A stretch of DNA of 61,100 nt, counting the filler, from Catajapyx aquilonaris (Eukaryota): assembly GCA_000934665.2 (NCBI GenBank). It is 2 parts of 2 records of this genome, joined end to end, with 100 filler letters (N's around TTAATTAATTAA, not from the genome) between each part and the next. Parts side by side here need not be neighbours in the genome. Positions count along the whole stretch, not along the records: positions 1 to 30,677 come from KZ539187.1; 1 more part is not named here. One strand, written 5' to 3'. Of this stretch, positions 12,728 to 53,784 are shown one piece after another. Within the stretch, counting starts at the first letter, position 1. Each line of letters begins with the position of its first letter. The notes below the pieces were generated by a model. That model was not told where the DNA came from, searched no databases, and saw only the letters and a program-made list of their open reading frames with translations. The position numbers and the translations under genes are program-made.

Positions 12728-15700
12728 ATGGAAAAAGACGGGACAGACAACCTATCCGGCAACAAGCCGTCGAAGCATGTCACCTTCCATACGTCCGATA
12801 CGCCAGTAAGTCGAGCTTTTATAATACTGTATATATTAAATACACTACATTCGACGATTCAGTTACTCATGCCAGTCACGTGATATCAATATTCTTTGCG
12901 TGATTTTTGACATGGATTTTTTTTTTCGTGGGTGTGTTTGGTCTCCTAGGCAACCAATTATAACACTGATTATTTCACCAATTTGGAATTAAGGTGGTAA
13001 GAGTAAGACGAGAGTAGTGTATGAAATGTGGGTTTTCTGGACATTAGGGGCACAAGCACATTAAAATTCCCTAATAAATAAAGACAAGAGTGGATGTATA
13101 GTCTCACCACTAGCACACAGCTACTGCTAACCACTGTCAACAACACTGATGACCATCGTAACCCACGAAAAAGCATATGATTGTGTGAATAGTAGTAACC
13201 TACTTATAGTAGCAGCCTGCTAGCGGTACTATGTTAACAGAGCAGTGGGACGATAATTCGACTCAAGATCGTTTGCTTCTTTATAACATGCCGGCTAAGC
13301 GATCCCACTAACACGCCGATTTTTGATGATTGAAAAATTCCGTCATTTCCACCTGCTCTATAATTATTATATAGTCTACTTTTTTCAAGCGCGGAGAATA
13401 TAGCCTACTGTTTGGATATGTCATTTTTTAAATTATACCGTTGCCAGTATGACCAAGAGCTCTTGGTATGACTTTTCTCCGCAAGGCCAGTCATGAAATG
13501 AGTAACTTAATTTGTGTGAGGTGTCTGTATTCATATACAAATACTAACTTGTACTTATCATGAGTTGACGTTCTTGAACAAGTAGTTTCATAAACTAAAA
13601 AGAGCACTTTACTCAACCAAACACCCCTTTCATGACTTGGTAAAGAACATTCAACGGATTGCCCGGCGAAACAATCTACAAATACAGGGTGGGGCAAAAG
13701 TCATGGGCTGGTTTAAACGACGCAGCATGGCGTAAGTAACGAACGATTATATTTAAAAAAAAAATTACATTACACAGAGAAAGCTATGGATCAAGGTCCA
13801 AAAAAGTCACTTCTTGAAAACAACACCGGATAGATGTCCACCTTTGCGGGCAACACATATTCCTCCAAACGCCGGACGAAACCCTTCATAACGCGCTCCA
13901 GCATGTCCAGGGAAATGTTTCTAACGGTGTGACTTATCTGATCCTTAAAGGGACACTCCACTCAAAAAACAAGTTTGGCTCTAAAAATCGGGCAAAAAAT
14001 CCTGAATCCGACGGGGCAATTAGTTTTTCGCTACGCGGAACGGTAATCCCAGGGCGAGGTGTCAAAGTGTGTCGTCTGCTAATTGGCGGCGCCGCCACGC
14101 GGGGAACAGGGGAACTGGAGAGCTGCACCACTCAGGGATGGGCCTAAGCGCGCGGGCAGGCGGGAGCAGCCCTCCAGTTCCCAAGGTCCCGAGGGCGTCG
14201 CTGGCGGACGGCCAGCTTCTAACGCACTATTTGAATTTCTCCACTTTGACCCATCGCCCTGTGATTACCGTTCCGTAGTGTAGCGAAAAACTGATTGCAC
14301 CTTCGCACCACGCCTGGCACTCCATGATTTTCGGTGCAGCGCAGCGTGGCCATCGCACAGTTAATAATGCAGCGTGCACGCTTGTTTCAGGAACTACCTA
14401 CAGAGACGCAGAGTAGCCAGGTTGTTATGGTTACCCCGAGCGTGATGGAGGTGCCAGAGTGTCTCAAGGAGGACGAAGCAGGCGCCATCGTCTGTCAGGC
14501 ATATGCACCGAAGAGAACACCCTTACCTATCACTCGAAACCTCCCTCAGTATGTACAATCGAACTCCAAGTACGGGATCGACGCTGCTCTGCAGAAGTAC
14601 ACCGAGGTCCTCCCTCCCTTCGTTCTTCGACAGAATAGGCACGAGAAGCAACAGTTGGTCAGTAGAACCGAGCAGCATTTCATTCCAGGGTTGAATGAAA
14701 CATCGCAACCAGTTGCTGATGTCATTCTAATATCTGCAACCAAGAGCTGCTGCAACTCATGTCCTTTACTCAAGAGTCTATAATAATATTACAGGTCGGC
14801 ATAAGAGGTCCGGGCTATTACGACAATGTCTACACGAGTTTCGTGGACGAGGCCAAACCGTGCAGCACCCGGTGTTCCCTCTCAACCCTGGTACCACGCT
14901 TCAAGACTGACATCCAGACTCATCCCGGCCCCGGGGCCTACAACTTATCCTCAGCGCTCGCCGTCGTCTCTAAACCCGGCTCAGTCGTAGGCAGTGCCCG
15001 TGTTCAGCCCATGGACATTAATACCCGTGTTAGCAGCGCAACCCATCGAATCAAGGCCGAGGATTCTGTTGGTCCGGGGGTGTACAACCTGGTACCCCCC
15101 ATGGACAGGTATTTGGCCACAAAGCGCTTCGGACTCATGGACGTGTATCAGGCCCCTAGAGGCAAACATATGGGTACGTGCACTGCTCTAGAGGTAGTCG
15201 CTGGCCATGATAATGTGTCGTTGTCACACTTCTTTTCCGCTCTCTCTAGGTACCATGGAAAGAAATACGTACAAGACGAGGACCGGCCCCGGGTTGTGCA
15301 ACATACCGATCCATGACTCGAGCCTTTCCCACAGGACAAAGGCGTTAGTAGGACGTTTGCTGAAATCTCCCCGGTTTTGTCCAGGACGGAAGTTTGTGAA
15401 TAATGGAAAAGGTTATCTTGTGTACTCTAAGGTGAGTAAGCATTAGGTCTACCTGCCATAGGACAAACAAGAGTAACCCTCTGTACTATCCTTTATTCCC
15501 ATATGGTGTGTGCAGGAGCTGTGTACCCCCGCACACTACCCCATAAGGGAGCTCTCAAGGCCCGAGAATGTCAAAAATGTATCCTTCAATCAAAGCTCAA
15601 CCAGGGATGGACCGCGAATGGGCTACGTAAGTTACTGACTATAATATAGTCACCCGACATGCATTGTTATTGCTCGGCGTGTATGTTGAACAAATGACTT

Positions 15701-16014
15701 GACATCCTTCTGCTCCTATGTAGACCTCCGCCATCCCTCCTTGCCGGTACTTCCCGGACGGCTTCTACGAGGATCGAAATGTCAACGGCCACAGTAACAT
15801 CTTCAAGTCCAAGTCACAGCGTTTCCCAGAGCTCCAGTCACACGAGAAGAGTAGCAAGAAAAGCTTTGAACACCTAAGCGTGAGGAAGATTGTGGGTGAA
15901 CAGTACGGCTCTGCCGATGCGAAGAGGGAGTGGGAGGAGGAGGAGAAGGTCTGGAGGCAGAGGAGAACCTCTGACGCGTCTAGCTGGGGCCGTGGCTATT
16001 ATTATCGCAAATAA
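12728..16014 (+). CDS. LEXM: SHIPPO (PGPGxY)-repeat ciliary/sperm-tail microtubule protein, LEXM/CIMAP2-like, ~435 aa
   Basis: Exons 12728-12805, 14391-14657, 14795-15173, 15250-15431, 15516-15626 and 15724-16014 splice in frame with GT-AG sites. Repeats are GPGYY, PGPGAY, GPGVY, GPGLC, TPAHY and PPCRY, with PRF, GLMDVYQAPR and C-terminal NGHSNIFKSKSQRF motifs. AATAAA follows the stop. Exon 1 is the least certain. Confidence 0.72.
12941..12954. promoter_or_regulatory. RFX X-box in intron 1 of the LEXM-like gene
   Basis: GTCTCC-TA-GGCAAC, about 135 bp into intron 1. Confidence 0.6.
13447..13472. repeat. 12-bp palindrome flanked by 7-bp direct repeats (possible transposon footprint)
   Basis: GTATGAC-CAAGAGCTCTTG-GTATGAC. 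Confidence 0.45.
13685..13948 (-). mobile_element. Tc1/mariner remnant (rosa/maT-like): 3' TIR plus frameshifted transposase C-terminus
   Basis: Terminus is TA|CAGGGTGGGGCAAAAGTC. Minus strand 13948-13807 reads KDQISHTVRNISLDMLERVMKGFVRRLEE/(+2 nt)/CVARKGGHLSGVVFKK*, the typical RL..C....GGH C-terminal motif. Confidence 0.8.
13949..14305. mobile_element. Kolobok-like non-autonomous element inserted at TTAA, right end missing
   Basis: TTAA(13945-13948)|AGGGACACTCC terminus interrupts the mariner ORF. A subterminal inverted repeat pairs 14009-14069 with 14242-14305. Confidence 0.6.
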
Positions 16015-17263
16015 CTCCAACTCTCCAAGCCACAAAGCGGAATGCTTCCTTTTGACGTCTCATAAAATAAATTATTTCGGCTCACTTATAAGAATTTTGT
16101 ATTTTATTATTCTGGCAGGAGGGGTGAGAAGAGGAGCAAGGGCTGGGGGCAAGGTCCGTGATTATGATATGTATATTATAGAAATGTATAGCCGATTTGA
16201 ACATGATAGTTGGAGGGTGGTGGCCTGAGCCGGGAATACGCTTTTGGGGTGTTAGCTTCAGTCGCTTCATAATATGCCACGATATGCCACTTTCACCGTG
16301 AAAGGCCGGAAGCTTCGACCACGCCTGGACACTGGACTAACCCCTCAAGTCATTATCAAGCCCGTTTTTTGGTAGAACAATCATAGTCCTGTAGACAAGT
16401 ATGATTTTAAAAATAATTTATCCTACATAAAATTATGGGGCACACTGCAAACTTCTAACTTCCAACTGTCATGTCTGAGAATGACAAGAAGTTCCAGAGT
16501 TCCACCAGGGGTGGTCCACGAATCACCTGAATGCTAACTTTCGCGCGTGTACTGCAAAATTGATAACAACTAAAGCTCTGGTGTATCAATGCAAAGGGAA
16601 AATATCCGGTTTTGCATTAAATCGGATATTTTCGTTTCATTTTGCTTCTGTGCAACTGGGCCATACAGTCCTCGTATATGCAGCCACTTTTTTCCCCAAA
16701 CAACTTTAGGCAGCTCAATTTTACATGGAAAAATAGACAGCTGAAGTTCTCTTTGGTAAAAGTAGTTTTATGTACTGTAGACCAACAGATTATTATAGGT
16801 ACAGTACGTTGCACACAGTATATGAAACCTGTCTTTGATTCATGAAGAGTTTAATGGTACTGCCAAAGCAGGCCAGCCTATGTTTGACTATATGGATATG
16901 TCCTTTCCCTTATACACATTAAAATAATATTGAAATTCTCTACATCGCGGGGTTTGGGGCTGCGGGATATAAACTCAGCATTCTCTATCTTATTGGACAA
17001 TAAACTAATGTAGATCAAGAAGATTTGTGCCGTCGTCTGATTGAAGAAATATTACTGGTCGATTAGGATATATCAAATTGAGCAAATTAAATAAATGCGA
17101 TTATACTCTGGATCAGTAATTTAATGGGTGATCAGATCACTACTTTATTTTATCTTTATTTTACATTGATCCGTGCCCTGTTGCTAACCGTAAACGTAAC
17201 TTCAACTTTGAGGTATGTTAATACGATGCTCAATATTGGTGTAAATGGCACTGGATATACACT

Positions 17264-17368
17264 TTGTAAACATTTTTATCCCCCCCCCCCCCCNNNNNNN
17301 NNNNNNCCCCCCCCCCCCCCCCATTTGATGTATAAACCTCGCCGGGGCGGGGGTGAGGGTAATAAACC

Positions 17369-17440
<72 letters not shown>

Positions 17441-17453
17441 GTAAACATTTTTA
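17264..17453 (+). mobile_element. 5'-truncated non-LTR retroposon insertion with (TAT)n tail and 15-bp target-site duplication; contains a small assembly gap
   Basis: TTGTAAACATTTTTA occurs at 17264-17278 and 17439-17453. These flank poly-C/N13/poly-C, a short body ending GGTAATAAACCAG, and the (TAT)n run at ~17371-17440. Confidence 0.75.
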
Positions 17454-17645
17454 CTGTACGACACCAACCAATCTTCACAACAACATCGACTTTTTCATCG
17501 AATTGCGCTTTTGCCCCATTGTTACCAAACCCCATTTGGAATTACACTCGACCTTGCAAAGTGATTAGGAGAGTTGAAGTCAGAAGTGATTGCAAATAAC
17601 CCACTCAGTTCACATCGGTCTTGGCTACCGTTCACTTGGTCTACG

Positions 17646-20600
17646 ATGCACCTCCAAGTGGGGTTGCTCTTATTGCTGTCAATCACCAAAGTCAGCAATG
17701 GATTCTTCTCCTCAGCAATGGACATCTTCTCTGGCATGCTGGGTCAACGCCTTACAGGTGAATTAATTTGAAATTTGACTCGAGCAATTTTTTAATCAAC
17801 CCTGTCGCATTTAGACAACGTCGATCATTTGAAAGAGCTGATTTCCGAAAACCTTCAAGTACAAAAGCATAGATTCGATGACACACGCCACTTGTCAAGG
17901 GTGAGGCGTCATATGAAATGGGAGAATTGGACTCAACTGTCTAGAGATCGCGTTGGTGAGAAGGTTCATATCAGTACTTGTGTTGTATTGAACGTAACAT
18001 GTGGGTTTGCATGCAGGTGTGGCGTTCCTGAAGGGTGTGGAACCTATGGTTAGCCTCCCAGTTGAGTCTCCATTGGACCTGGAAATGTTTTCTGTCGGGG
18101 GTGACTGGATGGCCGCTGTTGTTCAGAGTTCATCTGATTCTTTCACGCCAATTTTTAAACTCGAGCAGGTAAGCCTAATATTGGTGTCATTGACTCCTCC
18201 CAAGTTTTGCATAGTTGGGAATATTTACTGTTGGCAGGGTCGTTGTCATTTTACATGTTGAAGATCTGAAATGTGACAGACCAGAACTTGACCCACACTT
18301 GTTTTTAGGTGTATCAGGAAAGCCATGGGAAGTCATTGCAGACGTATACAGCGAGTCTGTCGTACACGCTACAAACCGTGAACGCTACTGTCATTCGCCA
18401 TGTTCACATCTATGGCACGGATTATCTGATAGCTGGCCAATATGACGTGAGTGATGCAGAGGATCTTCAAGCTGGTTCTCCAGTTTATAAGATTGTACCA
18501 CACACGAACGTGGTGGAACATGTACAGACAATTGAAACTCGATTTGTCGCCGATATGGAAGTTTGGTATGACAACCTGCGTCGTTTCTTTCTTACACTGT
18601 TCATTTATGATTTTTAATGCGATTCTAGGAGAGGGGGACGAGAGGAAATCAACGAGCATTTTCTTATTGTTGCACCTGCAGGCCAGGTAGTCAACAATGT
18701 TTTCCAGTATGAAGTCGAATGCCCGGTGTTTAGATGGCAGGGAGCATATTACGACAAGTTCACTGAGGTCAAAGCTTTCAACCCGAAGGCTGTTGAACAT
18801 TTTCGGATCGGAGCAGCTGACTTCTTGGCAGTTGCAAATCATCGCAATGACGAGGGTAAGTGTTTCCGTTTTGTTTTTACTGAAAGGCCAATGTGACAGT
18901 GCAAATTAAGAGAATCTCAAACTATGTAGTGGCTTCACAATTTCTACTCAGATTTTACTTGAATTTAAGTCGTTGCAACTGGGCCTAAAACTGACTTATT
19001 TGTTTCAGATATTTACAATATAGATTCGTTCATTTATCGGTACAACTACAATAAGGACCGGTTCGTCGAATTCCAAAGAATTGCCACAAGTGCAGCTGTA
19101 GATGTCAAATACTTCTCTCTAGGGAGTGACATGCATGAAGAGCATTTTATCGTTGTGGCCAACATGTTTCAGATAGGTACAGTCACGGAATAATATGTAC
19201 AGTACCAGGCGTAGGAACTGATTTTATCGTGTACTACTCAGAGCTCCTGATCCTGTACATCATTTTACTTGTGACTGAACAGTGTTTGTATAGCTAGTTT
19301 ATTTTGAAACATATTAAATAATGTAACATGTATCTTGTAGTCGGAGACAAGAAAGATCATCGAGTCAACAGTATCATCTACAAATTCTCAGAAGATCGTT
19401 TCGTCCCATTTCAAACCATCCTGACCGAAGCAGCAATGCAGTGGCTGCCAATTAAAGTATGTGAAATTGATCAGTTCAATAATTGCATAGTCACTACAAC
19501 TTTTACGTTCCAGGGAAGCCAAGGCGAGTTTTTGCTTGCTGTCGCAGAACGTTACAGCGGGGTCAAGTTGTACCAGTACAACGGCTGGAACTTTGTGGCA
19601 TCTCAGGTCGACTACACACAACACGCATTTGCTCCTGGGGTCATTAAATTGAAGTCATTTTCCACTGATGAAGCCACGCTCATTGGTAAGTTGGATGACT
19701 GTAGCATTGATAAGTATGTACAGTATAAGCCTGGAGTTCACATTTTTTTAGGAGTTGTTAATGAACAAGTCGGCAGCGACGAGCCATGCTTGTACAGTGT
19801 CCTGTACGAGCGTCGTAATGACCTGGAAGAATTTCATAGCCAGATGGAGCTGTGGGCTACCACTTCCCTGGAAAATTTGAATAGTGTCAATCTTACTGCT
19901 CTCGCCGCCGAAATTAGTCTTGCTCCAAAACTGACCTCAGACTCGCTGGTCATTGAAGGTGACCTGGAATTTCGAAACGACGTGGACATTTCAGGCGTTT
20001 TGCACACAGACAACGTAAGACTTGTTTTGAAGAATGGATCTGCTCATTATGAATGATTTCCTTCTGTTACAGTTGACCAACTTAGAAACTAGCCTTGTCC
20101 TGGATCAAGAGCACGCCACGCATCTGTTATCGCTGAGAAATAGACTGACTGCAGGTATACAGAAATTGGCCCGAATAGAAGCAGATATAAAGCGAGCTAT
20201 GAAGAAAAATGAAGACTCAACACTAAACGGTAAAAAAATGTTAACATTTTTTTTTATCGAGATCAAAATCGGTCTGTTTTCTCTAGGTTCAATATCATTC
20301 ACGAATGTCGTCTGCACAAATTGCAACTTGGAGGCTGTGGAAGTGAAAACTTTAAATTCTCAACCTATGGATGAATATTTGGACATGGTGATTTATCTGG
20401 ACTCAAACTTGACCCACGAAGGATCACTCACTTTGTCAGAAGCGACGTTTCTGGACGACGTTGACGTGTATGCGCTGAACAATATCTACTTGAAACACTA
20501 CGCTACATTATCGGGCGATCACATCTTCCAAGAGGATGTGGATATCACAGGGAGCGCCGTTGATGCTTTGGATGGATTGAAGGTTTCAGGCTTGATTGAT

Positions 20601-23600
20601 GGAGTGGATTTCAGAGTGGAAAACATCTTATTGTCTGTGGGAAACCAGACATTCAATGGCAAGTTTTGTTGTTAAAGGGCTGATCTTGTGCTAATTGAAT
20701 TGGTACATTGGGCAGGTACCTTTTTTGCTGATCATATCTCCGTTGACAATCTGCAAATGCAGACAGTGAACACAATCGAGATAGATTCATACTTTGACAA
20801 TGTGATCCAGAAATCTACTGGAGGATTAGTGGATGGCATGAAAACTCTGGAACATGTAGAAGCCAATAACTTGGTCATCAATGGAACCATCAATGGTCTG
20901 GATATAAATGATCTGTATGAAAATGCAATGTACCTGACTGGAGACCAGTACGTGACAGGTATATGATGAAATATCAGCATTTATAATGACTGGTAATTAA
21001 CTAATACGCCTAATTTTAGGAAACCACAATTACATGAATATTTCAACCGAGTCGGTGTTTGTACAAGGCACAATCAACGGATTACTCATTCCGGAACATT
21101 TTGTTCAAATCGACAAAGGCGATTACCACCTGGAGGAAATTCGATTCACTGAAGATGTGAACATCGATAGTCTCACTGTCACAGATCATTTGAATGAAGT
21201 GAAAGTTATTGATGGAAAGTTGGACTTATTGCTTCTGGACAGTGAGGAGCCGCAAGTAGTTACAGGCTCAAAGACCTTTGAGACTATCTACTTGACTGAA
21301 GATTCTACAATAGATGGATTAGTCAACGAAGTTAATCTGCACGAGTGGAATGAAACTATTGTCATAATTCTGCAAAAGGATGTACCCGGTATATCTTGGT
21401 AATAATTTGTTCTAAGCAAAGGCTAATCTATTTTATACCACCAGGGAATGTAACCGTGAATGGTACTGTCGAGATAATAGGAGACTTGAATACCGGAGAT
21501 ATTCGAAGCCAACATTCTTCATTAACACGATTATACCAACATGGAATTAGTCTTGATTCTGATCAACTTCCTTTTACAAAAGTCAACTTTTTGAATGATG
21601 TCGAGGTGAGTTTTATCCAGTCGGGAATATAAAATCCATTGGACTTTTTGATGGTTCCATCCTGTAAACATTGCTATATCAACACTTGGACATTTTTCAG
21701 ATTCACGGTGATTTGCGCGCGTCACTAATAAACGGCAATAGTCCTGACAACTGGATCCAGCTGAATACGACCAGAAAGCAAGTGCTTCAGGGGCGTATTG
21801 TGTTCGAAGATGACATCCACATAAAAAATGATTCGACAGTGGATGATCTGGGTGTGGACCTGGCAGAACTGGAAGCAGACGTCCTGAAGCTACATGGTGA
21901 CCAAGTGATACTAGGAGAAAAAACTATTATCTCTTTCACAGCTGACAAGTGAGTAGCCTCATGCACGATTAAAGCACTATTAGAAAGTACAATCAATATG
22001 CTTTAACTTTTCAGCGTTGTAAGTGACAAGGTGTTTATAGATGGTGTCGATATGAAAACTGCATTAACTAAAGCAGCAGCCCAAGAAATATCTGAGCTCA
22101 AGGAGGTAAATGGCACTTTGAATGTCCTGCATGGAGTAACTGTTGACAAATTAACAGTAGCGGGGTCAATCAATGGTATAAAAATAGAAGAAGTGGTCAA
22201 TGACACACTATTCATAAATAAGCCAGGTAAGAGCAGGAAAGGGGTGGGGAGAGGTCATATTTAAATCATTATGTGAATGACCTTTGCAGATCAAATGATC
22301 ACGGGAAGAAAAGATTTCACGAATATCGTACATGCAAACAATTTCTTTGTGGGAGGAAAGGTCCAGGGATATGATCTGGAAACATTTCGAAACAGCCTAG
22401 TGTTTCGTAATGATAGCGCCGAAATTACCGGAAGCATTTCCTTTACCAATGATGTGAAGCTGGATGGACTCGAAGGTAGTAATAAAATTGAAATCCAGGC
22501 GCTCACTTGTGCAATACTACTTTTTCCCCCAGGAATTGTTGATTCCATTTCGTCGGATGACATCCAGCAATGGCTGTTAAAATCTGGCGAACAAGTATTA
22601 ACAGGCGAGAATGTGTTTCGAGAATTGTACGCGACTGATGGAATTAACGCCGAAAAAATAAATTCCATATCCATAGACAAATTGATCAATGAAAGCATTA
22701 ACATAAATTCTCCCATAGAACTGGAGGACGTGACATTTGGTAAGTATCACATGGATTGTGCAGTAAATGTGTTTATATCTGCGCCTTTTTTTCACAGGCG
22801 ATAGCATAATTGTAACTACGCAAGTGATAGTCGATGGAAAGGTTCAAGGTTGGGATTTGTCTGAACAGGCGGTATCGAAGAGCGACAGTGATCAGTATAT
22901 ATCAGGTCGAAAAACCTTCAAGGATGACGTGATTGTGGAGAACAATATAGAGGTTAATACTCTATCGGGCACAAACTTCGATCAGATGTGCTCATTTTCC
23001 TATGGGCCACAGGATCTGGCGGATGTGCTTGTACTAGGTCAGTTAATTGGCTGTAGTTTATATTTGCACATATTTAAAATTATCATTGCAGGTGATGTCG
23101 CATTTGCGGAAGAACCAGTCATACTCCATTCCGTCAACGATGACAACTTGCAAGAACTATTAGATAGTTTGTGGTTGAAGAAGGCTGATGCTCACTTGAC
23201 AGGTCACATGGAATTTGTTGACGTTCATTTCAATTCAGCTACTGCCAATGTAAGACCCAAGAGTTATACCATGCCGAAACTGAAATACTCACCATAACAT
23301 CGCATTTAATTCCAGGGCTTGTTTGGAAAAGTCAACTTGTCTCACCTGAGAGACTCATACTTTAGTAAATCCAAACCTCAAGATATATTATCGCATTATT
23401 TTATAAGCCATGTTGAAATGAATAGAAACTTGGATGGGTCGATGGCTGAAATTGGCGGACTGATCAACGGCATCAACATTTCGTCATTTGACGAGTCTGT
23501 TCTCAAGGATGGACCCGATCAAATCGTAACCGGTAGCCAGACTTTTGCGACCTTAAAAGCAGGTAAATGAGAATTATCATAGTCAATATTCCAGCACTCG

Positions 23601-25878
23601 ATCTTACTTTTGATTTTGCAGAAACCGTTTCTGTCGATGGAACTGTAAATGGATTAGATCTGGACACCGAAGTCATGCTATACAGTGCCGACAATATCGT
23701 GACAGGGGCGAAGTGTGTCACTGACCTTGTAGCTGACAGACTTTTTGTTGATTCTGGAGTTAAGATTCAAGGTGTGGATATTATTCAATGGGATGCTGAC
23801 AGCGTAAAGAAAGAAGGAAACTTCACATTGCAGGGAAAAAGATTTGAAAACGTCAACTTCCTTGATTACGTTTTGTGAGTGTGTAATTCGTAAAAATGTT
23901 AATGAAATCTAATGCAATTTTTTATTGGCAGGGTACTGGGAGTGGTCAATGGGTTGGAGTTTTCAGAAAACTTTTTGATGACAAAATCAACGTCTCAGGT
24001 CTTGACTGGTGACAAAATATTTATTGATGATGAACCAATGACGATGGACAACCTTGTCATTAATGGCCTTTTCAATGGTGTGAACATAGATCATCTCTTC
24101 AGTGATGTGGTATGTATGGTCTTGTATGCCCGGATATGCATTTTTTTCTTAAAATTTGTTTATTTTAGTACTGGAGAAATGAACCGGTGATAATCACAAC
24201 CTTCAAGACTTTCCTGGCACCCCTGCATTTAAAGTCAGCTACTGTCAGATGGTATTATCAAGGGCACAATATTACCGACCTGTACTTGCGACTAGAAAGT
24301 AACATAGACCTTCTTTCTGTCGATGATTTGTACGCAGAGCTGTACACTACATTGCGAACTATAACCACAGCGCAGAACCGTAAGCACTTGCAGCATTGGC
24401 CCCTCTTGACACAATTACGACTGCTAATTTACTTCAGATTCTCCAACTTACCTGTGGCACTACGATGTTGTGCCGAAACTGGAGGGACATCCGAAGAAAA
24501 TCTCCCCTGTTGTCTTCAATTACAACAGTTCGTCCATGTCAGAACCATACTTGGCAGTAATAACTGAAGAAAGTGTCACTTACTCACGGTTCCGGATATC
24601 CTTGTACACGTGGAACCACTTGTTTGCAAGATTTCAGGAGCGAGGTAAATCAATAGTGCCAAACTCATATATTGTCACAGGATTAGTCTAATCGTAACAT
24701 TTGAATATGCATGTTTCAGTTAATCAAACTGTATTGATGAAGCCCAAAGATGTAGCCGGTTTGGTAAGCGGTGGCTCATTGTACCTGGCCATTACTACTG
24801 ATGAGAAATCGACGTCATCTTCAGTGGATCTTCCCAGACAGTTATTGCCTTCTAGCAGTCCAGAATCCTTCACCAGCCAAAACGGTTAGCTTGAACTGGG
24901 ATAAATGCTGAGCTGGTCCTATTGGCAAACATTTTTCAGATAGTGCAAGTTCAGCTTATGTCGTCAAATTCGACTTAAAGGAACAGAAAATGACTGGTAA
25001 AGCAGCAGGCTATGCCAATTTCACATCCAATGTGGAAGTCCTGTATTTAGTAAATCCAAGGCAAGCCTGTCTCTTCCTGGCGAACTACGAAGGTAGTCAG
25101 TCTGTCCTACTGTGCGATCATCCATCTCAAATAGGTTTTTCTATTCAACAATATTTTCCTACGATTGGCGCCGCTGAGGTTGGTTGCTAAAGTACGTATT
25201 AATAATCATATGGATTTATTGTGGAACATTTTTTTTTCCAGGCTGAATCTGTGATGATTGGGAATGAACTATTTTTGCTGATTGCCTGTGACGGGAGAGG
25301 TTACACTGGAAGGAAGTCGATAGATGTGTGGCAGTTCAACTCGCTGACTCGAAGATTCCAACTGGACCATAGGCTTCCGGGGTCCAGCAACACTAAAATG
25401 GATGTCATTGCATACCATGATGAAGCTTACCTCGCAGTTATTCATTCGCACGTGGTTGGGTCTGTGTATAGCGGTGAAGTTAGGATATACAGGTAAGGAT
25501 GCATGAAATGTGAGATGTAATGGTTTTTGACAATCGTTTTTTCCTGCTTTCAGATATTACCGATATATGAAGCGTTTCTTGAAAGTCCAAGCATTTGAGG
25601 CTGCGTCTCCTTTGGAATGTGAATTTGTCATTCTTACTCCTGGTGACCAATTAGCTTTGGTCATCTTGGATTCGAGCCATATTCATAACATCAAGGTTTA
25701 CATGTACAAGGGATTGTCTATGTTCCAACTGGAAACTATGGCTACTTTGGAGAAGGCTACTTCAATGAGGACATTCAATTCACCTACCAGTTACTATTGG
25801 GGCGGAGATAATTTTATCGTGTCATCATCAGATAATGACAACAAAGTTCTGAGAGCTGTGTTCAAGGGCAGGTGGTGA
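17646..25878 (+). CDS. Large secreted protein (~2000+ aa, ~30 exons): signal peptide, N-terminal EAR/EPTP repeats, helical linker, long beta-repeat rod, C-terminal EAR-like repeats; Closca/fs(1)M3 (Polehole)-like candidate
   Basis: Signal peptide MHLQVGLLLLLSITKVSNG. EAR-type repeats include FLAVANHRNDE, IDSFIYRYNYNKDRFVEFQRIATSAAVDVKYF, NSIIYKFSEDRFVPFQTILTEAA and VKLYQYNGWNFV. The central region has recurring QxxTGxKxF and GxINGxD motifs, and the C-terminus has IKVYMYKGLSMFQL. The junctions I checked splice in frame. Stop TGA at 25876-25878, AATAAA at 26001. Confidence 0.85.
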
Positions 25879-27697
25879 ATTTTACCTGCCATTGCTATGG
25901 AATAGTCAGGCAGAGTTCGATTATTTTATGATCTATATTGTTGAAGTTTTCAGAGATTTATAAATTCAAATATCCTCAGTGACCAGTGTATATTTTTGTT
26001 AATAAATGGCAGTTGCTACGTGAATATTGCATTTCTCTATTTTACCCCGGCATGCCTACAGGGGTTTTCCCCACTTTTTGGAATAACCGAAGCCTGTAGT
26101 TCATGCTACCAAATCGTAATATTGGTCCCATGGGCATTTACTAATTTAGTCTAGGCCAAAGGGAGAAATTCCCCAAGTGCAGCTACTTGATGACTAGAAC
26201 GTTGCCATATTAGACGTTATCACCCTCCTCATCGAAATGCGTGCAGTAATTATGCACTAAATCCTCAATTGATTGGTGGACATTTTTTCTTATCCTGGCC
26301 TAGGTACGTACAAATATTTTTTGTAGGAAAGAAGGGGAGAGGGCAGAAGACATGCAATCATGTGTTATTACTGTAGCTGCGTTTCAAACCCCATTCATTT
26401 TTTCTCTACATAATTTTCTCATCACACAAGGATATACAGCCTGAAGGTCAGGGGTAGGGTTGCAACCAGATTTTCTTTATTTCATTGTTACGAAGCTGAA
26501 GGTATTTTGAAGAAACTGGCAAAAGCATTCAGACATAACATTCCCGTGATGCAAATGAGCTAGCTGGAGGAAAAAAAATTAATTGACTATTTGACAATCG
26601 AAATCGGCATGCAATTCGGGCCAGAATTGGCTGAGTTGTAGGCGAGGTGTGAATTTAATTACTGGGCAGTTATATAAACTCAGTGTTAAATATATTGTCC
26701 TAAACATTTCGTAGATTCATTAAAAATAGGCCTGATATTTTCGATTCAATAAGTAGCAAAAAAATACCTTGACGCGTGTATAATGATAACCACACATACA
26801 TATGTGTACAGTAGGCCTACTCATGTGTGCAGCAGTGCAGGCATACTAATAGGAAAAGTTTGAGCACAATTATCATGGAATTTAAAGGTGTGCGACGACA
26901 TGCAACCTTTAATATTTCAAATTATTCGATGATTTTTTTGGATGCTGAAAGTTCGTGGAAAAGTTCCACAAGTTTGGATTTTTTGGTGGGAACCAATCCG
27001 CCCATGGAGGATTCGAGGATAAATGCCTCCTAGGGTGGTGGCTAGAGAAGGGGGTGGATTTTCCTATATCCCCTCACCTGATGACTCGCCCCAGCTCGCC
27101 CCAAAGAAATCGCTGTATTTTGTATGATAAAATATGAATTTATAGAGAAATGTGACTATATATGTTGGATTATGATGATTACGTGATAAAATATATACGA
27201 GATGGGGTGTTCTAAGGCTTACAGGTACCGGTACCTAAAAGTTTCGAGTTGAACTGCTGATCACGACATGCTGGCCTCTTATTTGAAAACGGAACGACAT
27301 GACAAGTCTAATTATACCGCCTTTTCATTGTCGCAAAACGTTTTTGTGACACGCCCTGAGCATTCAAGCGCCTAAAAACGCCTAAAAATGACGCCACACT
27401 CTAATTGATTTTCTATTCCCACCCTCCGGCTCATTTAGTATTATTAGCCTCATTTGCATAATGTTATAGCTACATGGAGGACACTTGGTTCACTGCAAAA
27501 ATGTTTTATTGACCCACCTTTGGGAGATAATCCACTTTTTTCTATACAGTACGGTAAATGTCCTGGTAAAACTTGAGGTAAAAACTGATATGTAGTACGC
27601 ATAGCTTATGCCAACATTTGAAGCAGCACTGGACGTCTCCTAGACGTCTCCTGCCACCTACCTATGCCCCCTGAACTAGTCTGGATACTATCTCAAA

Positions 27698-37082: not shown

Positions 37083-39616
37083 ATGAAGCTCGACATGATC
37101 AGAATAGCACTATTCTTCCTTGTTCTGTTGGTTTCCCAAACTTGGGGAGACGATGACCAACCTGTGGTGAAAACTAAGTTAGGAGAAATTCGAGGTTACA
37201 TCCAGCCATCTTCCAAAGGGCATGATTTCTACACCTTCCTTGGAATTCCTTATGGACAACCACCTGTTGGACCTCTTCGATTCAAAGTAAGTAATGTCTA
37301 ATCAAAATTTTATAACCTGATAATATTGACATTTCAGCCTCCATTAGCATCAGAACCATGGGACGATATACGTGATGGCACTAAAGAAGCTCCATTTTGT
37401 CTTCATTACGATTATGTTCAAGCGAAAAGGACAATGGGAAAGGAAGACTGCTTGTACCTGAATGTGTACACCAGAAAGGTAATTATTTGTAGTAATTTCA
37501 GAGCCAATCATAATTTCTTAATATGAACAGCTTCCAACGGAGGACCACAACCCGAGTTTGCCAGTCATGTTTTGGATCCATGGTGGAGGTTTCTCATTTG
37601 GTAGCGGCTCCCCCATATTTTGGGGACCGCAATATATGCTCAACCATGACATTGTACTGGTGGCAATCAACTATAGACTGTCATCATTTGGGTTTTTGAG
37701 CACTGGAGATGAAGCATGTCCTGGTAACATGGGTTTGAAGGACCAAAACTTGGCTCTCTCATGGGTCAGAGATAATATCGCATCCTTTGGGGGCGATCCC
37801 AATCGTGTGACTATCTTTGGAGAAAGTGCAGGGTCAGCCAGTGTCCATTACCACATGATGTCGCCAATGTCCAGAGGTAGGTGACCATGGGCATATAAGG
37901 TGAAGTGGGGTAAGTGCATACACGGGGTAAGTGCATATATTGTGCCGCCATATTGGAATGAAAATGGCTGACGACACCAAAACGCGGGGGATGTTATGTG
38001 CAGCTACACAAAAGAGTGCCTGACGCGTTATGGTGTCGTCAGCCATTTTCATTCCAATATGGCGGCACATTATATGCACTTACCCCGTGTATGCACTTAC
38101 CCCACTTCACCTTACAGCAATCGCAGCAAATGTTCGGATTTTATTATAGGTCTGTTCCATGGAGCCATATCTCAAAGTGGAACTGCACTATGCAGCTGGG
38201 CATGGTTACCTCCATCAGAGACTCTATCAAGGGCCAGACGCCTCGGGGCCGTTGTTGGTTGCAAGCAAGACAAAACTGATGATCTGATTGATTGCCTTAG
38301 GACCATTCAAGGGTCTAAGCTTGCTCAAGCACACCTTAGACTTGTGGTATGCATTCGATTGTATCTATAGGTATGCATTAAAGTGTTTGATGACCAATAT
38401 GTGACCTTTGTAGGAATGGTACCTTGACCCCGTGGTTCTCTTTGGGCCCACTACGGAATTAGCGGGAGATCATAAATTTTTGTCAAATTATCCGTATGAC
38501 CAACTTGTTTCCGGAGATGTCGCTCCTGTACCTTGGATGACTGGCTTTTGTGATTTGGAAGCGGAAATGATGATAGCAGGTATTTTGATATAATTACAAT
38601 CATGACTAAGGTCATTTTATGCTTAAAGCTCATTAAATCACATTTTACAGGCATTTTGGCAGACAAAAATCTTAAAAAGCAAGTGAATCAAGAGCATCGG
38701 AGAATATTTCCTCTAATAATGGCGTACAGGCATTTGACTGATCAAAATGATTATGTGTCAGACGAGGTCTGGCGCACTTTTGTTGGAGAAGGAAAAAACA
38801 TCAGCATGGAAAATCGAGCAAGCTTTATAGAGGTGAGTCAAGGATCTTAAAATCAATCAGCATAGATCTCTATTGTTGTGTATTTCAGGGATATTCTGAC
38901 CGATTTATGAATCATGGCATTATCAAAACTGTAAAGATTCAGGCTGCCACTGCTTCTGCCCCTATTTACTTCTACCAGCTTACGTTCAAGGGTCAGAGCA
39001 GCTTCTCCAAGATTCTGGGGAAAAGTCAGTACGACCCAATAGGTGAGATTGTATGGCACCTCGTAATAAGCCGACAAAAAGTTAATGAAAATATCATTAA
39101 CGAAACGAAACGAAACGAAACGAAAACTGTTTTCGTTTCGAATCCTTCAGTTTTCCAGGAATTCGCTTTGAAGCTACTGTCACATTACCGAATTTTTTAA
39201 ATTACAGGAGTGGCCCATGCTGACGACCTATTATATTTATTTCCACTCATGATATTTCCTCCACTTAAAGAAGGTACTCAAGAGATGCGAATGATGGAGA
39301 TGATGACAGCCTGGTGGACAAATTTTGCATATACTGGGTAAGTACCAGGTCACATGATTACACTAACAAGTAAGACCAAGTGTACTGCAATGATCAACTT
39401 TGGCTGTGCAGGAATCCGACTCCTCCTGGTGGAAAAGAATCGAGCGTGACATGGGAACCGCTACGAAAAGATGTTTTAAATCACTTGAACATGAACTTAG
39501 AACCACACATGCAGACAGAGTATCCAGAAGAGAGAATACAATTTTGGGACAATATGCCTTTGAATGAACACGAAAGGTACAAGCCTGCCTCTAAGAATGA
39601 AAAGGATGAACTGTAA
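37083..39616 (+). CDS. Carboxyl/cholinesterase 3, signal peptide, C-terminal KDEL
   Basis: GIPYGQPPVGPLRF, EDCLYLNVY, WIHGGGF, GESAG, DLEA (Glu), GVAHADD. Ends NEKDEL*, with AATAAA at ~39633. Confidence 0.93.
37898..38112. mobile_element. 215-bp TA-flanked MITE (Tc1/mariner-pogo type) in an intron of CCE3
   Basis: TA|AGGTGAAGTGGGGTAAGTGCATA...TATGCACTTACCCCACTTCACCT|TA. The ~85-bp near-perfect TIRs each contain two GGGGTAAGTGCATA copies. Confidence 0.9.
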
Positions 39617-39889: not shown

Positions 39890-43063
<3,174 letters not shown>

Positions 43064-43891: not shown

Positions 43892-46223
43892 CTAAGGCAA
43901 CCTCAAATAGCTCCATAATGCAACTCTTTCATGGGCATCAAATTCCATCATTTTTGAATACGGCAAGTCGATATTTAATAGCATGACATTGTTAGGGTCC
44001 ACACTTGTCCATGTGCCAGCATCAGGGGTTGGGTTCCTGAAAATGACTCGTTGCACTAGCCAATCATGCGATTCAAAATGTAAAATAGTATTCCAACTCA
44101 CCCTGTATGCATGAAGTTTACAAACATTGAAACGATCATCTCCGAAAGAAACTTCTCCGGCTGCTGCAATCTCGGGAAAAGGTTTATGTCGAACAAGTAC
44201 TGCAGTTCATCAATGTGACTTACACCAAAATCTTCTGTAGTATTTGCAAATACTTTTGCATAACTATTGTTGGACACGTGAGAGAGACGGTAGAAAAACA
44301 CAGGTTCTGGTGAAGTTTTAGATATTCCAACAACGCAATTGTATGTCTCTGCCAAGTAGTGACGATCTGTGATCATCTGAAAGATATGGATGTTCGAGCA
44401 GCTGACCAGTAATTAGTTAAGGTGTATTTACCTCCGTCATGCTTGAAGCATCTTCTCGGCCAATTTCTCTGTATGGATCTCCAAAATAGAAATTGCGAAC
44501 TACTCGATTGATTTCATCCTTCCTTTCTTGCTTCAGCAGATCGTAATCCAGAGCATGTTCTATTGCATTGTCCGGGTCTCTTTGCAGTTCATAGAACATA
44601 TCTTCACTTGTCATAAAGTCTGTTGACAATATAATTATAATGATTGTTTATACAGTATGAGTTAAATTAATGTACCTGCAACTAGATTAGCCCCTTCGTC
44701 CCTGTTATAACCAACCAACCAGGGCACCTTGTTGTAATGTCCACTTCGTATAATTCGAGCAGGAAAATCAGGAAGAAATGCATCAGGTGCATATCCTTCT
44801 ACAACCGGTCGTATAATTTCACTTGGATAGTACTTCCACCTCTGGAAAATCAGGAAGTCATAAAGTCGTTTTCTACAACATAATCAGTGCAATCATATTA
44901 CGAGAAAGGCTGGATTCTGAGTAACAATCTTTGAAGCAGGTCTACTTTTGAGGCATTCCAAAAGTAATTCCGATGGATGTGTTGGGCATTCAAGTAGAAC
45001 AGCCAGTTTTTTAGATTTTCGTTGAATCTCTCTAAATGTGGATTCAACTGCCCAAAAAGTAGTTGCCACTCCGCTCTCGGAAATCGCTCGATGAAATAAT
45101 CCTGCGTAGAATGAATATAAAACGAAGTCGTAATTTGGAGCGTCGTAAAACAAAACATACCTTTTGAAAGAGGTGATAGCATATGGAGGTTAACGCTAGA
45201 CCCTCCGACACTCTCTCCGTTAATGGTGACACTATTTGGATTTCCTCCGAAGTAAAATATGTTGTCTTGCACCCAACGAAGTGCCATGGTTTGATCCTTC
45301 AGCCCCATATTTCCAGGGCATGTTTGATCACCCGTGCTGAAAAAGCCTGTACAAAAACATTGTTAGTGAAGCATATGACGTGTAAAGTAGTACGAGAAGA
45401 AAATATTGTTTGGCGACCAACCGTGACCTAAATATTGACCTTGAAATTGGTTGGAAAACGAGCTTTCTCAATATACGTGAAAGTATAAATTTTCTGCAGT
45501 GCATGATTCAGAAAAAAATAAAAGCAACGTTTTAGACATATTCAGGTCACTTGGTAGAAAAGGGACTTTAGATCATATGATCATACCAAAAAATCCAAGG
45601 CGATAGTTGATAGTGACCATCACTATTTCCCTGTCCATCATGATGCCTGGACCATACAAATCTCTATTTCCCGACCAAACTACGTATGATCCTCCGTGAA
45701 TAACAAAAAGGACATCCAACATGGGATGATACTGCAGGTTGGGTAACTGATGGATGTCATATAATTATAATTTAAGAGATGTATTAAATTTACACTATCT
45801 TGTTATGGGTAAGAAACTGTCACCGACCTTTCTGGTGTAGACATTTAGGCAGAGACAATCTTCGGACCCTTGCGGTTCTCTTATTCTAGGAACATAATCT
45901 TGCTGGAGACACACAGAACATTCATTTCGGGCATTAAATATTTCGAATTTACCTTTAAACGGCACAGGAGGCTGCAAAATAAATCCATCAAAATAAACGG
46001 GAAAATATGTCCAACTTTTCTGACTCACCTCGAAACGTAATTCGTTGATCGGAGGTTCTGCATATGGGATTCCAGAAAAGGCGTAAAATTCATGACCTGC
46101 ATGTGACTGGAGGGTGCACCCTTGAATGATCCCCAGGTGAGGTGTGTATGCCAGTGGAATTGAGTCAAACTGGGAGTCATAACCATTGACCACCACGCAC
46201 AATAAGAGCAGTAGATGCAGCAT
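43892..46223 (-). CDS. Carboxyl/cholinesterase 5, predicted secreted, GESVG type
   Basis: Signal [52 protein letters not shown]. Ends LWSYLRLP*. Confidence 0.92.
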
Positions 46224-46912
46224 GATGTGTTTATCTGAGCTGAAACGAAAAAGATGAATACCACTTACTACATAAGAATTTTCTCATACTGTAATTGGTA
46301 GATGCTACCCAAGCCTAGATTGCATAACGAATAATTCTTCATTTTACAATTAGACAATTAAAACATCTCCTGGTAAATGATGAAAGTACATTTACCTTCT
46401 CACCTCCTCCTGTTTGCATTGCATGTCGTCTCCAGGCACGTTCTTTTAACAATGAGTCGATCTCACGATAGTGCCACGGACTACCGCTGACCACACATGA
46501 TGAATTACAAGGTCATTAGAACGAGGCTGTAGAAAATTTTATAACGTGTATAGTTCATGAAATGGAACCTGTTTTAGGTATTATTTTCACAAGATCGGCG
46601 CATGTTTTTTGTCACCTGCTATCGTTTGGACCTATGCAAAATGCACAGCGATTGTTTCGCAACTAAATGTGCAACGTGTTTTCCTTCAGGCGTTTCGTAC
46701 CAATACGGTCATAAATAGTCAAAAATGACTTGATTACCAATGTTTTAAAATTTATTGCGCCAACTATACATGCCGCCAGAAGGAGAGTAGTTTCATGATA
46801 AATTAATCGGGTAAAGTGCGTGTGGAGGGTTTTTAGGTTGTTATTTAAGCACTGAAGGAAATTTACTGCTCTGGATATGGCCAATACTTTATTAGAACCT
46901 CATTACGGACAT

Positions 46913-49224: not shown

Positions 49225-49298
49225 GTTTACCTGAGCTCTACTGAGCGAGTGCCTATTCGTTATTTGCACAGGTGCATCCATTATATACGGTCTAAAGG

Positions 49299-49313
49299 TG
49301 CTCTCTGGCGGGG
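49299..49313 (-). promoter_or_regulatory. Conserved upstream 15-mer CCCCGCCAGAGAGCA (CCE6), followed by TATATAA
   Basis: Identical to 43137-43151, 75 nt upstream of the ATG. A TATA-like TATATAA lies at ~49287-49281 on the coding strand. Confidence 0.5.

Positions 49314-51318: not shown

Positions 51319-53784
<2,466 letters not shown>

Follow-up and report, generated by a model that had tools for sequence, protein, structure and literature searches.

What kind of protein is encoded by the long split gene at positions 17646-25878 of the Catajapyx aquilonaris window (61,100 nt in total; assembly GCA_000934665.2), and what does the repetitive middle of that protein build? The gene lies inside the part derived from KZ539187.1 (positions 1 to 30,677). 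On balance, and with moderate confidence, we read its product as a secreted protein of the Closca branch, within an animal-wide family of ~2000-aa secreted proteins, in which two propellers are joined by a rod of 42-aa units that probably assembles as a parallel three-chain fibre with a putative role in the inner egg coat.

The interval 17646-25878 on the plus strand is a single split gene, modelled as 29 exons encoding 2075 aa (2075 codons plus the stop). The model was obtained with our own dynamic programme, which chains splice sites and codon bias, and was later refined against a profile of 24 relatives, which lifted its score from 1184 to 1236 bits. The preliminary description had placed the gene at the same positions, and the ATG at 17646 and the stop codon at 25876-25878 agree with the ends of the model. 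Exons 1-5 occupy 17646-17757, 17815-17955, 18017-18168, 18318-18565 and 18629-18855; exons 6-10, 19009-19176, 19341-19456, 19514-19685, 19752-20014 and 20073-20229; exons 11-15, 20287-20658, 20716-20958, 21020-21388, 21445-21605 and 21701-21948; exons 16-20, 22015-22226, 22290-22475, 22533-22739, 22798-23037 and 23092-23249; exons 21-25, 23316-23562, 23622-23874, 23932-24109, 24169-24379 and 24438-24644; and exons 26-29, 24720-24884, 24940-25178, 25242-25492 and 25554-25878, all on the plus strand. The 28 introns of this model are short, most commonly 57 nt, and the gene is therefore not carried by any single open frame. One of them, at 20659..20715 (plus strand), is probably a GC-AG intron with a GCAAGT donor: the GC donor gives the best family-profile score (1236.4 versus 1230.4 for the best GT donor), and the resulting length of 57 nt is the commonest one in the gene. 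Least certain in the model are a few of the junctions and exon 2, which adds no more than +11 bits. The start codon opens a hydrophobic, signal-peptide-like stretch of ~19 aa (17646..17702, plus strand), as read off the translation. No paralogue was found in the window, all 239 tblastn pieces falling inside 18-26 kb on the plus strand. The gene is intact and an ordinary member of its family; the gene itself, its architecture and its family place are demonstrated by the observations presented here.

Both ends of the protein are LGI1-like seven-bladed EAR propellers, the fold being predicted on relatives. The N-terminal EAR/EPTP region (about aa 86-470, exons 3-9, 18019..19825, plus strand) is recognised by Pfam EPTP matches, the family profile and the model of a relative, and the C-terminal EAR-type region (aa 1685-2075, exons 25-29, 24449..25875, plus strand) by profile comparison and a second relative's model. 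Pfam EPTP (PF03736) matches four of the six N-terminal ORF pieces, two of which reach the cut-off of 21 bits (26.6 bits on 18618-18896 and 33.1 bits on 18969-19193), the other two being weaker; none of the five C-terminal ORF pieces is matched by EPTP. The EAR nature of the C-terminal end follows from three observations: the N-terminal and C-terminal regions match each other in profile comparison (probability 98.8%, E 6e-17, 256 columns); LGI1 is hit twice by the family profile (E 1e-25), the second time at profile positions 1786-1945; and the ends of relatives are modelled as propellers. The N end of relative P0002 folds into a propeller of 27 strands (pLDDT ~80-95) and the C end of the spider relative P0024 into 28 strands (pLDDT ~80-93), with the LGI1 EPTP domain as the best structural match in both cases (TM 0.81 and 0.79, respectively, normalised to the target). 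LGI1 EPTP chains occupy the top seven Foldseek ranks for both models. The placement of EAR propellers at both ends, made earlier from the sequence alone, is thus borne out by the EPTP hits at the N end, the match between the two ends, the LGI1 matches and the folds of relatives.

Between the propellers lies a rod of ~1000 aa (aa 587-1626, exons 11 to the start of 24, 20289..24216, plus strand), recognised by the unit profile and by motifs. Its unit of ~42 aa consists of GxVNGxDL, a short helix and QxITGxKTF. A unit profile derived by iteration from the window protein and 12 relatives finds 16 units in the window protein, and 14 are found when it is run over all fetched proteins; the rod is long enough for ~24. 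The eight GxI/VNGxD strings, five QxxxGxKxF strings and two helices listed in the preliminary description are all present in plus-strand exons at the positions given there, the GxVNGxD strings running from 20589-20612 to 24065-24088 and the QxxTGxKxF strings lying between 21253 and 24022. That description was right about the existence of a repeat unit, while its length of 35-40 aa has to be corrected to a measured 42-43 aa, and the extent of ~20250 to ~24300 narrows to 20454-24216 (aa 642 to 1626) for the detectable units. Two motif patterns occur nine and seven times in the rod slice, against means of 0.07 and 0.04 and maxima of 2 and 1 in 2000 shuffles; this excess is far beyond chance, although the contrast is inflated since the patterns were composed after the motifs had been seen. 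At the DNA level the rod is not a tandem repeat, and none of the 11 window rod exons matches any Pfam family. Among the relatives, 4-27 units are detectable and the rod mostly spans 900-1170 aa, its span and C-terminal flank being kept across the family.

Two predicted helices border the rod. The first (aa 548-573, 20115..20192, plus strand) maps to helix 575-600 of the P0002 model, a low-confidence part of that model, and shows heptad-like hydrophobic spacing in our own reading of the translation. The second (aa 1659-1679, 24313..24375, plus strand) maps to helix 757-777 of P0024, which makes contacts at a spacing of 3-4 in a three-copy fold, and the window residue is hydrophobic at six of the seven corresponding core positions. 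The helices noted initially, at 20133-20195 and 24319-24363, are contained in these mapped ones.

The repeat motif recalls the stem and neck of lactococcal phage receptor-binding proteins, and the sequence comparisons place this link at the level of motif and profile only. Pfam BppL_N (PF18338, cut-off 25.8 bits) scores above its cut-off in four of the 25 relatives scanned (52.9, 44.5, 33.5 and 30 bits) and below it in seven more, and precomputed Pfam annotation flags it in 11 of the 48 proteins of our second search; it matches none of the 11 window rod exons, even at E up to 10. Solved BppL chains are matched by the family profile (E 0.001-0.008) and by the rod profile (E 0.0099, chain residues 21-56), and they account for seven of the 11 matches listed for the window's own unit profile (E 0.29-1.6). 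All three profiles land on one place in these chains, every match being weak. In the TP901-1 protein, that place is described as a helix bundle at 17-30, a linker at 31-39 and an interlaced trimeric beta-prism with a six-residue repeat at 40-63 (PMC3893620). In PHROGs, one of six window rod exons matched an unannotated family (E 0.0083) and the other five matched nothing, and tblastn searches of 50,697 phage records, with a 747-aa rod relative as query at an E limit of 1e-3 and window exon 13 at an E limit of 0.1, returned no match. The proposed likeness to phage tail fibres accordingly holds for a short motif or profile in relatives (E about 0.001-0.01), whereas the window exons stay below threshold and BLAST finds nothing.

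Modelled as single chains, the rods of P0002 and P0024 gave pLDDT of about 25-55; such low values could equally stem from the shallow alignments of 41-43 rows. A confident monomeric globular centre, named beforehand as the outcome that would speak against a trimer, is absent from these models. Three copies of P0024 residues 450-780, which correspond to window aa 1354-1682 (87 of 323 aligned residues identical, 27%), reached 0.70 in three of three runs, the best of three controls scoring 0.00; contact agreement between the runs was at least 89% and the partner pLDDT at least 63. The best contacts pair residue i with residue i+6 of the next copy. The fold tool had been calibrated on two copies, where our test used three: the mark was reached by 21 of 30 proteins whose solved structure is a pair of one chain, by 0 of 23 solved as single chains and, among eukaryotic proteins lacking an older solved relative, by only one of seven; the fold was run without our own alignment. 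The three-copy pass may also reflect solved phage fibres that the model has memorised. The trimer suggested earlier thus has in silico support from the rod end of a relative, with the reservations that this spider protein is 27% identical and that such memory is possible.

The same gene and family could instead carry a single-chain rod, built of beta-solenoid or loop-helix modules, maybe calcium-binding, and acting as a monomeric spacer between the propellers. Bactofilins are a single-chain beta-helix family, and Pfam Bactofilin scores above its cut-off of 27.9 in relatives P0008 (29.3 bits) and P0025 (33.9 bits). Dockerins have a calcium loop-helix similar to the GxVNGxDL segment of the unit, and they fill the top two rows for the window unit profile (E 0.13), and Dockerin_1 matches relative P0063 at E 0.00098, below its cut-off; moreover, structure predictors often place chains side by side regardless of binding. 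However, the matches to dockerins and bactofilins are weak and extend over part of the unit only, neither single-chain model is a confident solenoid, and the three-copy fold lies far above its controls with a regular i to i+6 register. We regard the monomeric spacer as rather unlikely, while giving it real weight; the rod probably assembles as a three-chain fibre, as judged from the modelling of the relative.

As to family, the best match of the predicted protein is a beetle relative (blastp E 9e-148), collinear over aa 51-2060 versus 58-1979, and identity to every relative is about 24-27%. A search with one rod stretch against 1.84 billion representatives gave 15 matches, none below E 1e-10, of which 14 carry the unit. 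A second search, seeded from P0010, collected 48 proteins from spiders, horseshoe crab, mites, decapods, a centipede, a beetle, a fly, echinoderms, amphioxus, a hemichordate and cnidarians; family members across animals are nearly all labelled 'uncharacterized'. Over 100% of its length, the fly relative shares 42% identity with proteins of Cochliomyia and Lucilia that bear the name Closca in NCBI and UniProt. In two trees (FastTree, 50 rows, support 99; IQ-TREE, 26 rows, SH-aLRT 99) the window protein is sister to, and branches outside, a group of beetle and flies in which two fly proteins carry the name Closca from the source databases; this label is a database annotation of blowfly proteins rather than a tested function, and the searches returned no Drosophila melanogaster sequence. 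Judged by sequence, the window protein belongs to the Closca branch of a family of ~2000-aa proteins, and it is a new member of an already known family. The original guess of a Closca/Polehole/Nasrat-type protein gains from the end-to-end beetle homology, the 42% link to fly Closca and the support of 99 in both trees.

Nasrat, the product of fs(1)N, and Polehole, that of fs(1)M3, are, like Closca, insect oocyte-secreted vitelline-membrane proteins, and the window protein might be the counterpart of one of these two rather than of Closca. Other arthropod branches (lobster and mites; two spiders; centipede and decapods) share its architecture, and they are unlabelled in a tree containing no named Nasrat or Polehole sequences. 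This assignment is nevertheless improbable, because both trees join the window protein to the sequences named Closca with support 99 and separate it from the other arthropod branches with support 98-100. Orthology to vertebrate TSPEAR is more improbable still: three spider relatives are named 'tspear' by their sources, another spider and a sea-cucumber relative bear the name 'Thrombospondin-type laminin G domain and EAR', and EAR repeats are shared, but the Pfam laminin-G/thrombospondin N-terminal domain is absent from 23 window ORF pieces and 25 relatives, and the window family combines two propellers with a 1000-aa rod, features that TSPEAR is not known to possess. A recent phage or bacterial origin of the rod, or contamination of the stretch, to which the motif-level matches of relatives to phage baseplate and tail families might point, is extremely improbable, since at least 12 short spliceosomal introns split the rod like the rest of the gene, the rod also occurs in cnidarians, arthropods and deuterostomes, no BLAST-level match exists in the phage genomes searched, and the single bacterial-looking hit (P0015) lacks the unit.

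For the three-chain reading that we prefer, the chain would run from a signal peptide through a seven-bladed EAR/EPTP propeller, a helix, the ~1000-aa rod and a second helix to the second EAR propeller. Each unit would comprise a short helix, a linker and short strands with a six-residue rhythm, as in the lactococcal phage stem and neck. Three chains, either identical copies or paralogues, would most likely lie parallel, wound into coiled coils at the flanking helices and interlaced along the units into a triple-strand rod. The result would be a stiff fibre carrying three propellers at either end. On the analogy of Closca, Nasrat and Polehole in flies and mosquitoes, this fibre would be deposited by the oocyte in the inner egg coat, keeping that coat together and presenting its propellers to other proteins for docking. 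We infer this egg-coat role and docking in Catajapyx aquilonaris, as well as the cross-linking through propeller heads proposed at the outset. The analogy draws on two accounts, in which the Drosophila proteins are secreted by the oocyte and mutually dependent for entry into the eggshell (PMC6303783), and the Aedes counterparts are mainly expressed in the ovary and required for eggshell melanisation and egg viability (PMC10576393).

A bolder and rather doubtful extension, to which we assign a low probability, is that Closca, Nasrat and Polehole are themselves the three chains of one heterotrimeric fibre, with rods of equal length intertwined in register. The triple-strand rod would then repeat ~24 times a module whose other known occurrence is in phage receptor-binding proteins, with three different EAR propellers at each end. 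If true, this would account for the mutual dependence in eggshell entry and for the tethering of Torso-like and Nudel. Since the ~2000-aa architecture occurs in several paralogous branches from cnidarians to amphioxus, such a fibre would be an ancient and undescribed component of animal egg coats or matrices.

The genetics of Closca, Nasrat and Polehole goes back decades, and these proteins anchor the Torso-like and Nudel cues in the fly eggshell. We found no account of what these proteins look like, and no description of a two-propeller-plus-rod architecture for them, in the open literature searched. If they are propeller-tipped three-chain fibres, their mutual dependence and scaffold role become testable by ordinary biochemistry, and the spread of the family across animals suggests a general matrix element rather than an insect speciality.

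Among known systems, LGI1 offers the closest likeness for the end domains. The seven-bladed EPTP/EAR propeller of LGI1 has been solved with ADAM22, and it is the structure on which the two end domains modelled from relatives fit best, at 10-12% identity in the structural alignments and with a sequence match at E 1e-25. The window family differs in lacking the leucine-rich-repeat domain and in having two propellers per chain, ~1200 residues apart. TSPEAR shares EAR repeats and secretion, and some spider relatives carry its name; in the window family no laminin-G domain was detected, whereas a second propeller and the rod are present. Phage BppL (the receptor-binding protein of TP901-1 and Tuc2009) has the QxITGxKTF motif in common, its stem and neck follow the order helix, linker and strands of each window unit, and the predicted three-chain packing of the spider relative has the six-residue register described for the TP901-1 neck (PMC3893620). 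Nevertheless, the phage protein has one copy as opposed to ~24 in tandem, the window family ends in an EAR propeller in place of the phage-type C-terminal receptor-binding head, and with window exons under the Pfam threshold and no BLAST-level similarity the likeness does not amount to demonstrated common descent. Closca, Nasrat and Polehole differ from the window protein in that identity is only ~24%, yet they share its length class (about 1900-2100 aa), a signal-like start and EPTP matches, and the proteins that databases name Closca are homologous to it, collinearly and over the full length.

The region at 17.6-25.9 kb on the plus strand, a eukaryotic genome region, contains open pieces in changing frames with short gaps between them. 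Exons were chained by our own dynamic programme using codon bias and splice-site scores, and the chain was then corrected against a profile of 24 relatives. The resulting gene, a model from sequence and family profile, comprises 29 exons and 2075 codons, with the ATG at 17646 and the stop codon at 25876-25878. Most of its introns are short (54-75 nt in 24 of 28, with a modal length of 57 nt), and one of them, at 20659-20715 (+; 57 nt), is probably of the GC-AG type, its GCAAGT donor being preferred by the family profile over weak GT donors. Exon 2 of the predicted model has a profile-score support of just +11 bits. The gene is intact and codes for a secreted-looking protein of the Closca branch with two EAR-type regions, named for propeller-forming EAR/EPTP repeats, and a repeat rod; it is the single member of this family in the window. 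All peptides quoted in the preliminary description were recovered at their positions.

Several other features lie in and around this gene. A 20-nt unit occurs in two copies (90% match) at 17692-17731 in exon 1. Just upstream of the gene there are an N gap at 17294-17306, the flanking C-runs of which translate as proline runs, and a perfect (TAT)23 microsatellite at 17371-17440. An Rfam scan of 16000-27500 gave no match. Further upstream, an ORF piece at 14720-15316 (+) matches the sperm-tail PG-rich repeat (SHIPPO-rpt, 30.8 bits) and is probably part of a separate gene. The JYFJ02004651.1 part of the window contains exon pieces of the carboxylesterase family (PF00135) on the plus strand at 37522-38370 and on the minus strand at 40098-40718, 44898-46283, 47792-49326 and 52503-53511; this cluster, lying on the two strands, points to several esterase genes in tandem. 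The same record carries a 351-aa ORF at 55112-56167 (-) that matches rhodopsin-family 7TM receptors (56.2 bits).

Relatives of the encoded protein were sought in a representative set of 1.84 billion proteins using the rod stretch 22292-22738, which includes one in-frame 57-nt intron read through. This search gave 15 matches (best E 6e-9, 28-37% identity), 14 of which contain the repeat unit of the rod, the remaining one being bacterial-looking and devoid of it. A search seeded from one of these matches, P0010, returned 48 proteins, mostly of 1850-2300 aa. Their arthropod sources are spiders, mites, a horseshoe crab, a centipede, decapods, a beetle and a hoverfly; the others are crinoids, a starfish, sea urchins, a hemichordate, amphioxus and hydrozoans. 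Several paralogous branches share the architecture of ~2000 aa, which spans cnidarians, echinoderms, a hemichordate, amphioxus and many arthropods. Of the 48 proteins, nearly all are labelled 'uncharacterized', and several spider proteins are labelled 'tspear'; one hemichordate relative carries the misleading name 'outer membrane protein A-like'. A word-index search with the exon 19343-20014 among proteins of 393-2000 aa gave no match, most full-length relatives being longer than 2000 aa. In the ESM Atlas, the beetle rod gave no usable match, and the matches of a spider paralogue were all 'hypothetical protein' clusters with EPTP.

The best match of the window model is the beetle protein (E 9e-148, 24% identity, aa 51-2060 versus 58-1979), and blowfly proteins named Closca in NCBI and UniProt are 42% identical to the hoverfly relative over its whole length. 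A FastTree phylogeny was built from 50 rows, namely the window protein and 49 of the 64 fetched proteins, the 15 omitted being fragments, near-duplicate spider proteins and the bacterial-looking match. It places the window protein as sister to the beetle protein plus a fly group, in which sandfly is sister to hoverflies plus the Closca-named blowfly proteins (support 99), and this whole assemblage as sister to the chelicerate 'tspear' group (support 100). A fast IQ-TREE analysis of 26 rows recovered the same topology with SH-aLRT values of 99 and 100. The assignment to the Closca family, put forward in the preliminary description as a guess, was borne out by two trees, in which the window protein falls with Closca-named proteins at a support of 99. 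Judged from its sequence, the window gene is a new Closca-type member of a known family. An identity with TSPEAR was rejected because Pfam detects no laminin-G domain in the window pieces or in 25 relatives. Further arthropod branches with the same architecture, comprising lobster and mites, two spiders, and a centipede with decapods, may represent the counterparts of Nasrat and Polehole.

The 'dumbbell' outline proposed for the protein, with an EAR-type region at each end of the rod, also holds. Among six N-terminal ORF pieces, four match Pfam EPTP, two of them above the 21-bit cut-off (26.6 and 33.1 bits); none of the five C-terminal pieces does. The two end regions were compared as profiles of sub-alignments with the window protein as master, and the N region (aa 86-520) matches the C region (aa 1682-2075) with a probability of 98.8% (E 6e-17, 256 columns). 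In addition, a profile built from 41 members of the family hits LGI1 in the PDB (E 1e-25) in two stretches, one per end region. AlphaFold2 models of two relatives show end propellers at a pLDDT of about 80-95, with 27 strands in P0002, an N-terminal half of 1111 aa, and 28 strands in P0024, a spider C-terminal half of 1170 aa. In Foldseek, ranks 1-7 for both models are occupied by LGI1 EPTP chains (TM up to 0.81 for P0002 and 0.79 for P0024). From the mutual profile match, the double match to LGI1, the propeller models and the Foldseek ranking, the C region is concluded to be of the same kind as the N region, and 7-bladed propellers are predicted at both ends on the basis of relatives. Each propeller is linked to the rod by helices, and the two amphipathic helices noted earlier as bounding the rod correspond to helix 575-600 in P0002 and helix 757-777 in P0024.

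Along the rod the motifs GxVNGxDL and QxITGxKTF take turns, ~19-23 residues apart. This spacing gives a unit of 42-43 aa and corrects the earlier estimate of 35-40 aa. The two motifs occur 9 and 7 times, compared with means of 0.07 and 0.04 in 2000 shuffles, a contrast inflated by the fact that the patterns were written after the motifs had been seen. After iteration on the window protein together with 12 relatives, a unit profile detects 16 units at aa 642-1626, a span that could hold ~24, and a profile run over all fetched proteins detects 14; in relatives the number ranges from 4 to 27, with the fewest in flies and the beetle. No tandem repeat was found in the rod at the DNA level, and its units are old and diverged. 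Of the 13 rod exons (exons 11-23, 20287-24109), six code for 80-83 or 122-123 aa, equivalent to two or three 42-aa units, which hints that the rod may have grown by exon duplication. The rod span (mostly 900-1170 aa) and the C-terminal flank (~440-450 aa) are kept across family branches and phyla.

Other likenesses were observed in this part of the family. The GxVNGxDL half of the unit with the following short helix (for example, 22343-22468 and 23445-23561) weakly resembles the calcium-binding loop-helix of dockerins and can serve as a lead only; dockerins are the top two PDB rows for the window unit profile (a weak E of 0.13), and the relative P0063 has a weak Dockerin_1 match (E 0.00098). 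Pfam Bactofilin, a single-chain beta-helix, scores 29.3 and 33.9 bits in the rods of the amphioxus and horseshoe crab relatives (P0008 and P0025), above its cut-off of 27.9. The amphioxus protein also has fibronectin type II and F5/8 type C matches.

The preliminary description had envisaged the rod as a trimeric fibre, a reading at odds with a confident globular fold of a single chain. Modelled as single chains, the rods of both relatives reach a pLDDT of about 25-55, a result that a shallow alignment could also give, and thus no confident monomeric fold was seen for the rod. Residues 450-780 of the spider protein P0024, covering the last units and the flanking helix, were then folded in three copies. 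All three runs scored 0.70, versus 0.00 for the best of three controls, with at least 89% contact agreement and a partner pLDDT of at least 63. The mark used was reached by 21 of 30 proteins solved as same-chain pairs and by none of 23 single chains, a calibration based on two copies, not three; among eukaryotic proteins lacking an older solved relative, just one of seven did so. The surest contacts link residue i in one copy to i+6 in the adjacent one, and the terminal helix shows a coiled-coil-like contact spacing of 3-4. The folded stretch corresponds to aa 1354-1682 of the window protein (87 of 323 aligned positions identical), in which hydrophobic residues occupy six of the seven core positions of the helix. 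This three-copy prediction, obtained without our own alignment as input, supports a three-chain rod for a relative, with the reservation that the pass may reflect the model's memory of phage fibres. The trimeric reading is supported in prediction for the rod end of a relative, which passes its controls, and is putative for the window protein.

Published studies on Closca, Nasrat and Polehole provide a possible context for such a rod. In Drosophila, the three proteins are described as secreted by the oocyte, mutually dependent for entry into the eggshell, and needed for holding Torso-like there (PMC6303783). In Nasonia, orthologues were found and subjected to RNAi knock-down (PMC6777369). All three proteins of Aedes are reported to be mainly ovary-expressed and required for eggshell melanisation and viability, and are said to make a heterotrimeric complex that tethers Nudel (PMC10576393). 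A polehole-like transcript of a shrimp is described as ovary-specific (PMC7040003). On relatives, a parallel three-chain rod nucleated by the flanking coiled coils is predicted, and a stiff fibre that ends on either side in protein-binding propellers would by analogy suit a scaffold role; cross-linking via the propeller heads is a guess. In-register assembly of different chains would need the conserved rod span and C-terminal flank. A heterotrimeric Closca-Nasrat-Polehole fibre, ancient in animals, is on balance improbable in our estimation and can be tested.

In the open literature searched (subscription journals being outside its scope), we found no description for these proteins of the two-propeller-plus-rod architecture, the 42-aa unit or a link to the phage stem-neck, nothing joining closca with TSPEAR, and, among the papers listed, nothing tying nasrat or polehole to repeats, a propeller, EPTP or AlphaFold; among those listed for it, PF18338 occurs in a single paper, on polinton-like viruses. 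Databases already label relatives as EPTP and BppL_N, so that automatic annotation shows these parts to some extent.

BppL_N (PF18338) is a 25-residue Pfam model from the lower baseplate receptor-binding protein of the lactococcal phage TP901-1, and it bears on the likeness to phage tail fibres noted in the preliminary description. This likeness is retained as a short module in relatives and profiles, whereas direct search did not detect it in the window rod exons: none of 11 matches BppL_N even at E up to 10. With tblastn against 50,697 phage records, neither a 747-aa rod relative (E limit 1e-3) nor window exon 13 (E limit 0.1) gave a match. PHROGs returned no match for five of six window rod exons and a family of unknown function for the other (E 0.0083). 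Among relatives, BppL_N exceeds its cut-off in 4 of the 25 scanned (52.9, 44.5, 33.5 and 30 bits), with seven more below it, and is flagged by precomputed Pfam on 11 of the 48 proteins. With PHROGs, five relatives were scanned: three match families of the phage tail, virion-structural or baseplate kind (E 3e-9 to 7e-4), and the other two, from the beetle and a spider, have no match. The family profile matches the solved BppL chains of Tuc2009 and TP901-1 (E 0.001-0.008), and a rod-only profile matches Tuc2009 BppL residues 21-56 (E 0.0099). For a profile of ten window units, 7 of the 11 rows listed are TP901-1 chains aligned at this position, at just E 0.29-1.6. In low-confidence single-chain models of relatives, the unit has two short strands at GxVNGxDL, a short helix and then an extended stretch, with a strand rhythm of six in places. 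According to a review (PMC3893620), the matched stretch of the TP901-1 protein consists of three bundled helices (17-30), a linker (31-39) and, at 40-63, an interlaced trimeric beta-prism whose repeat is six residues long. Common descent is not established by this likeness; the matches in relatives and the part order of the rod unit, which is that of the TP901-1 stem-neck stretch, argue that the likeness itself is real as a short module.
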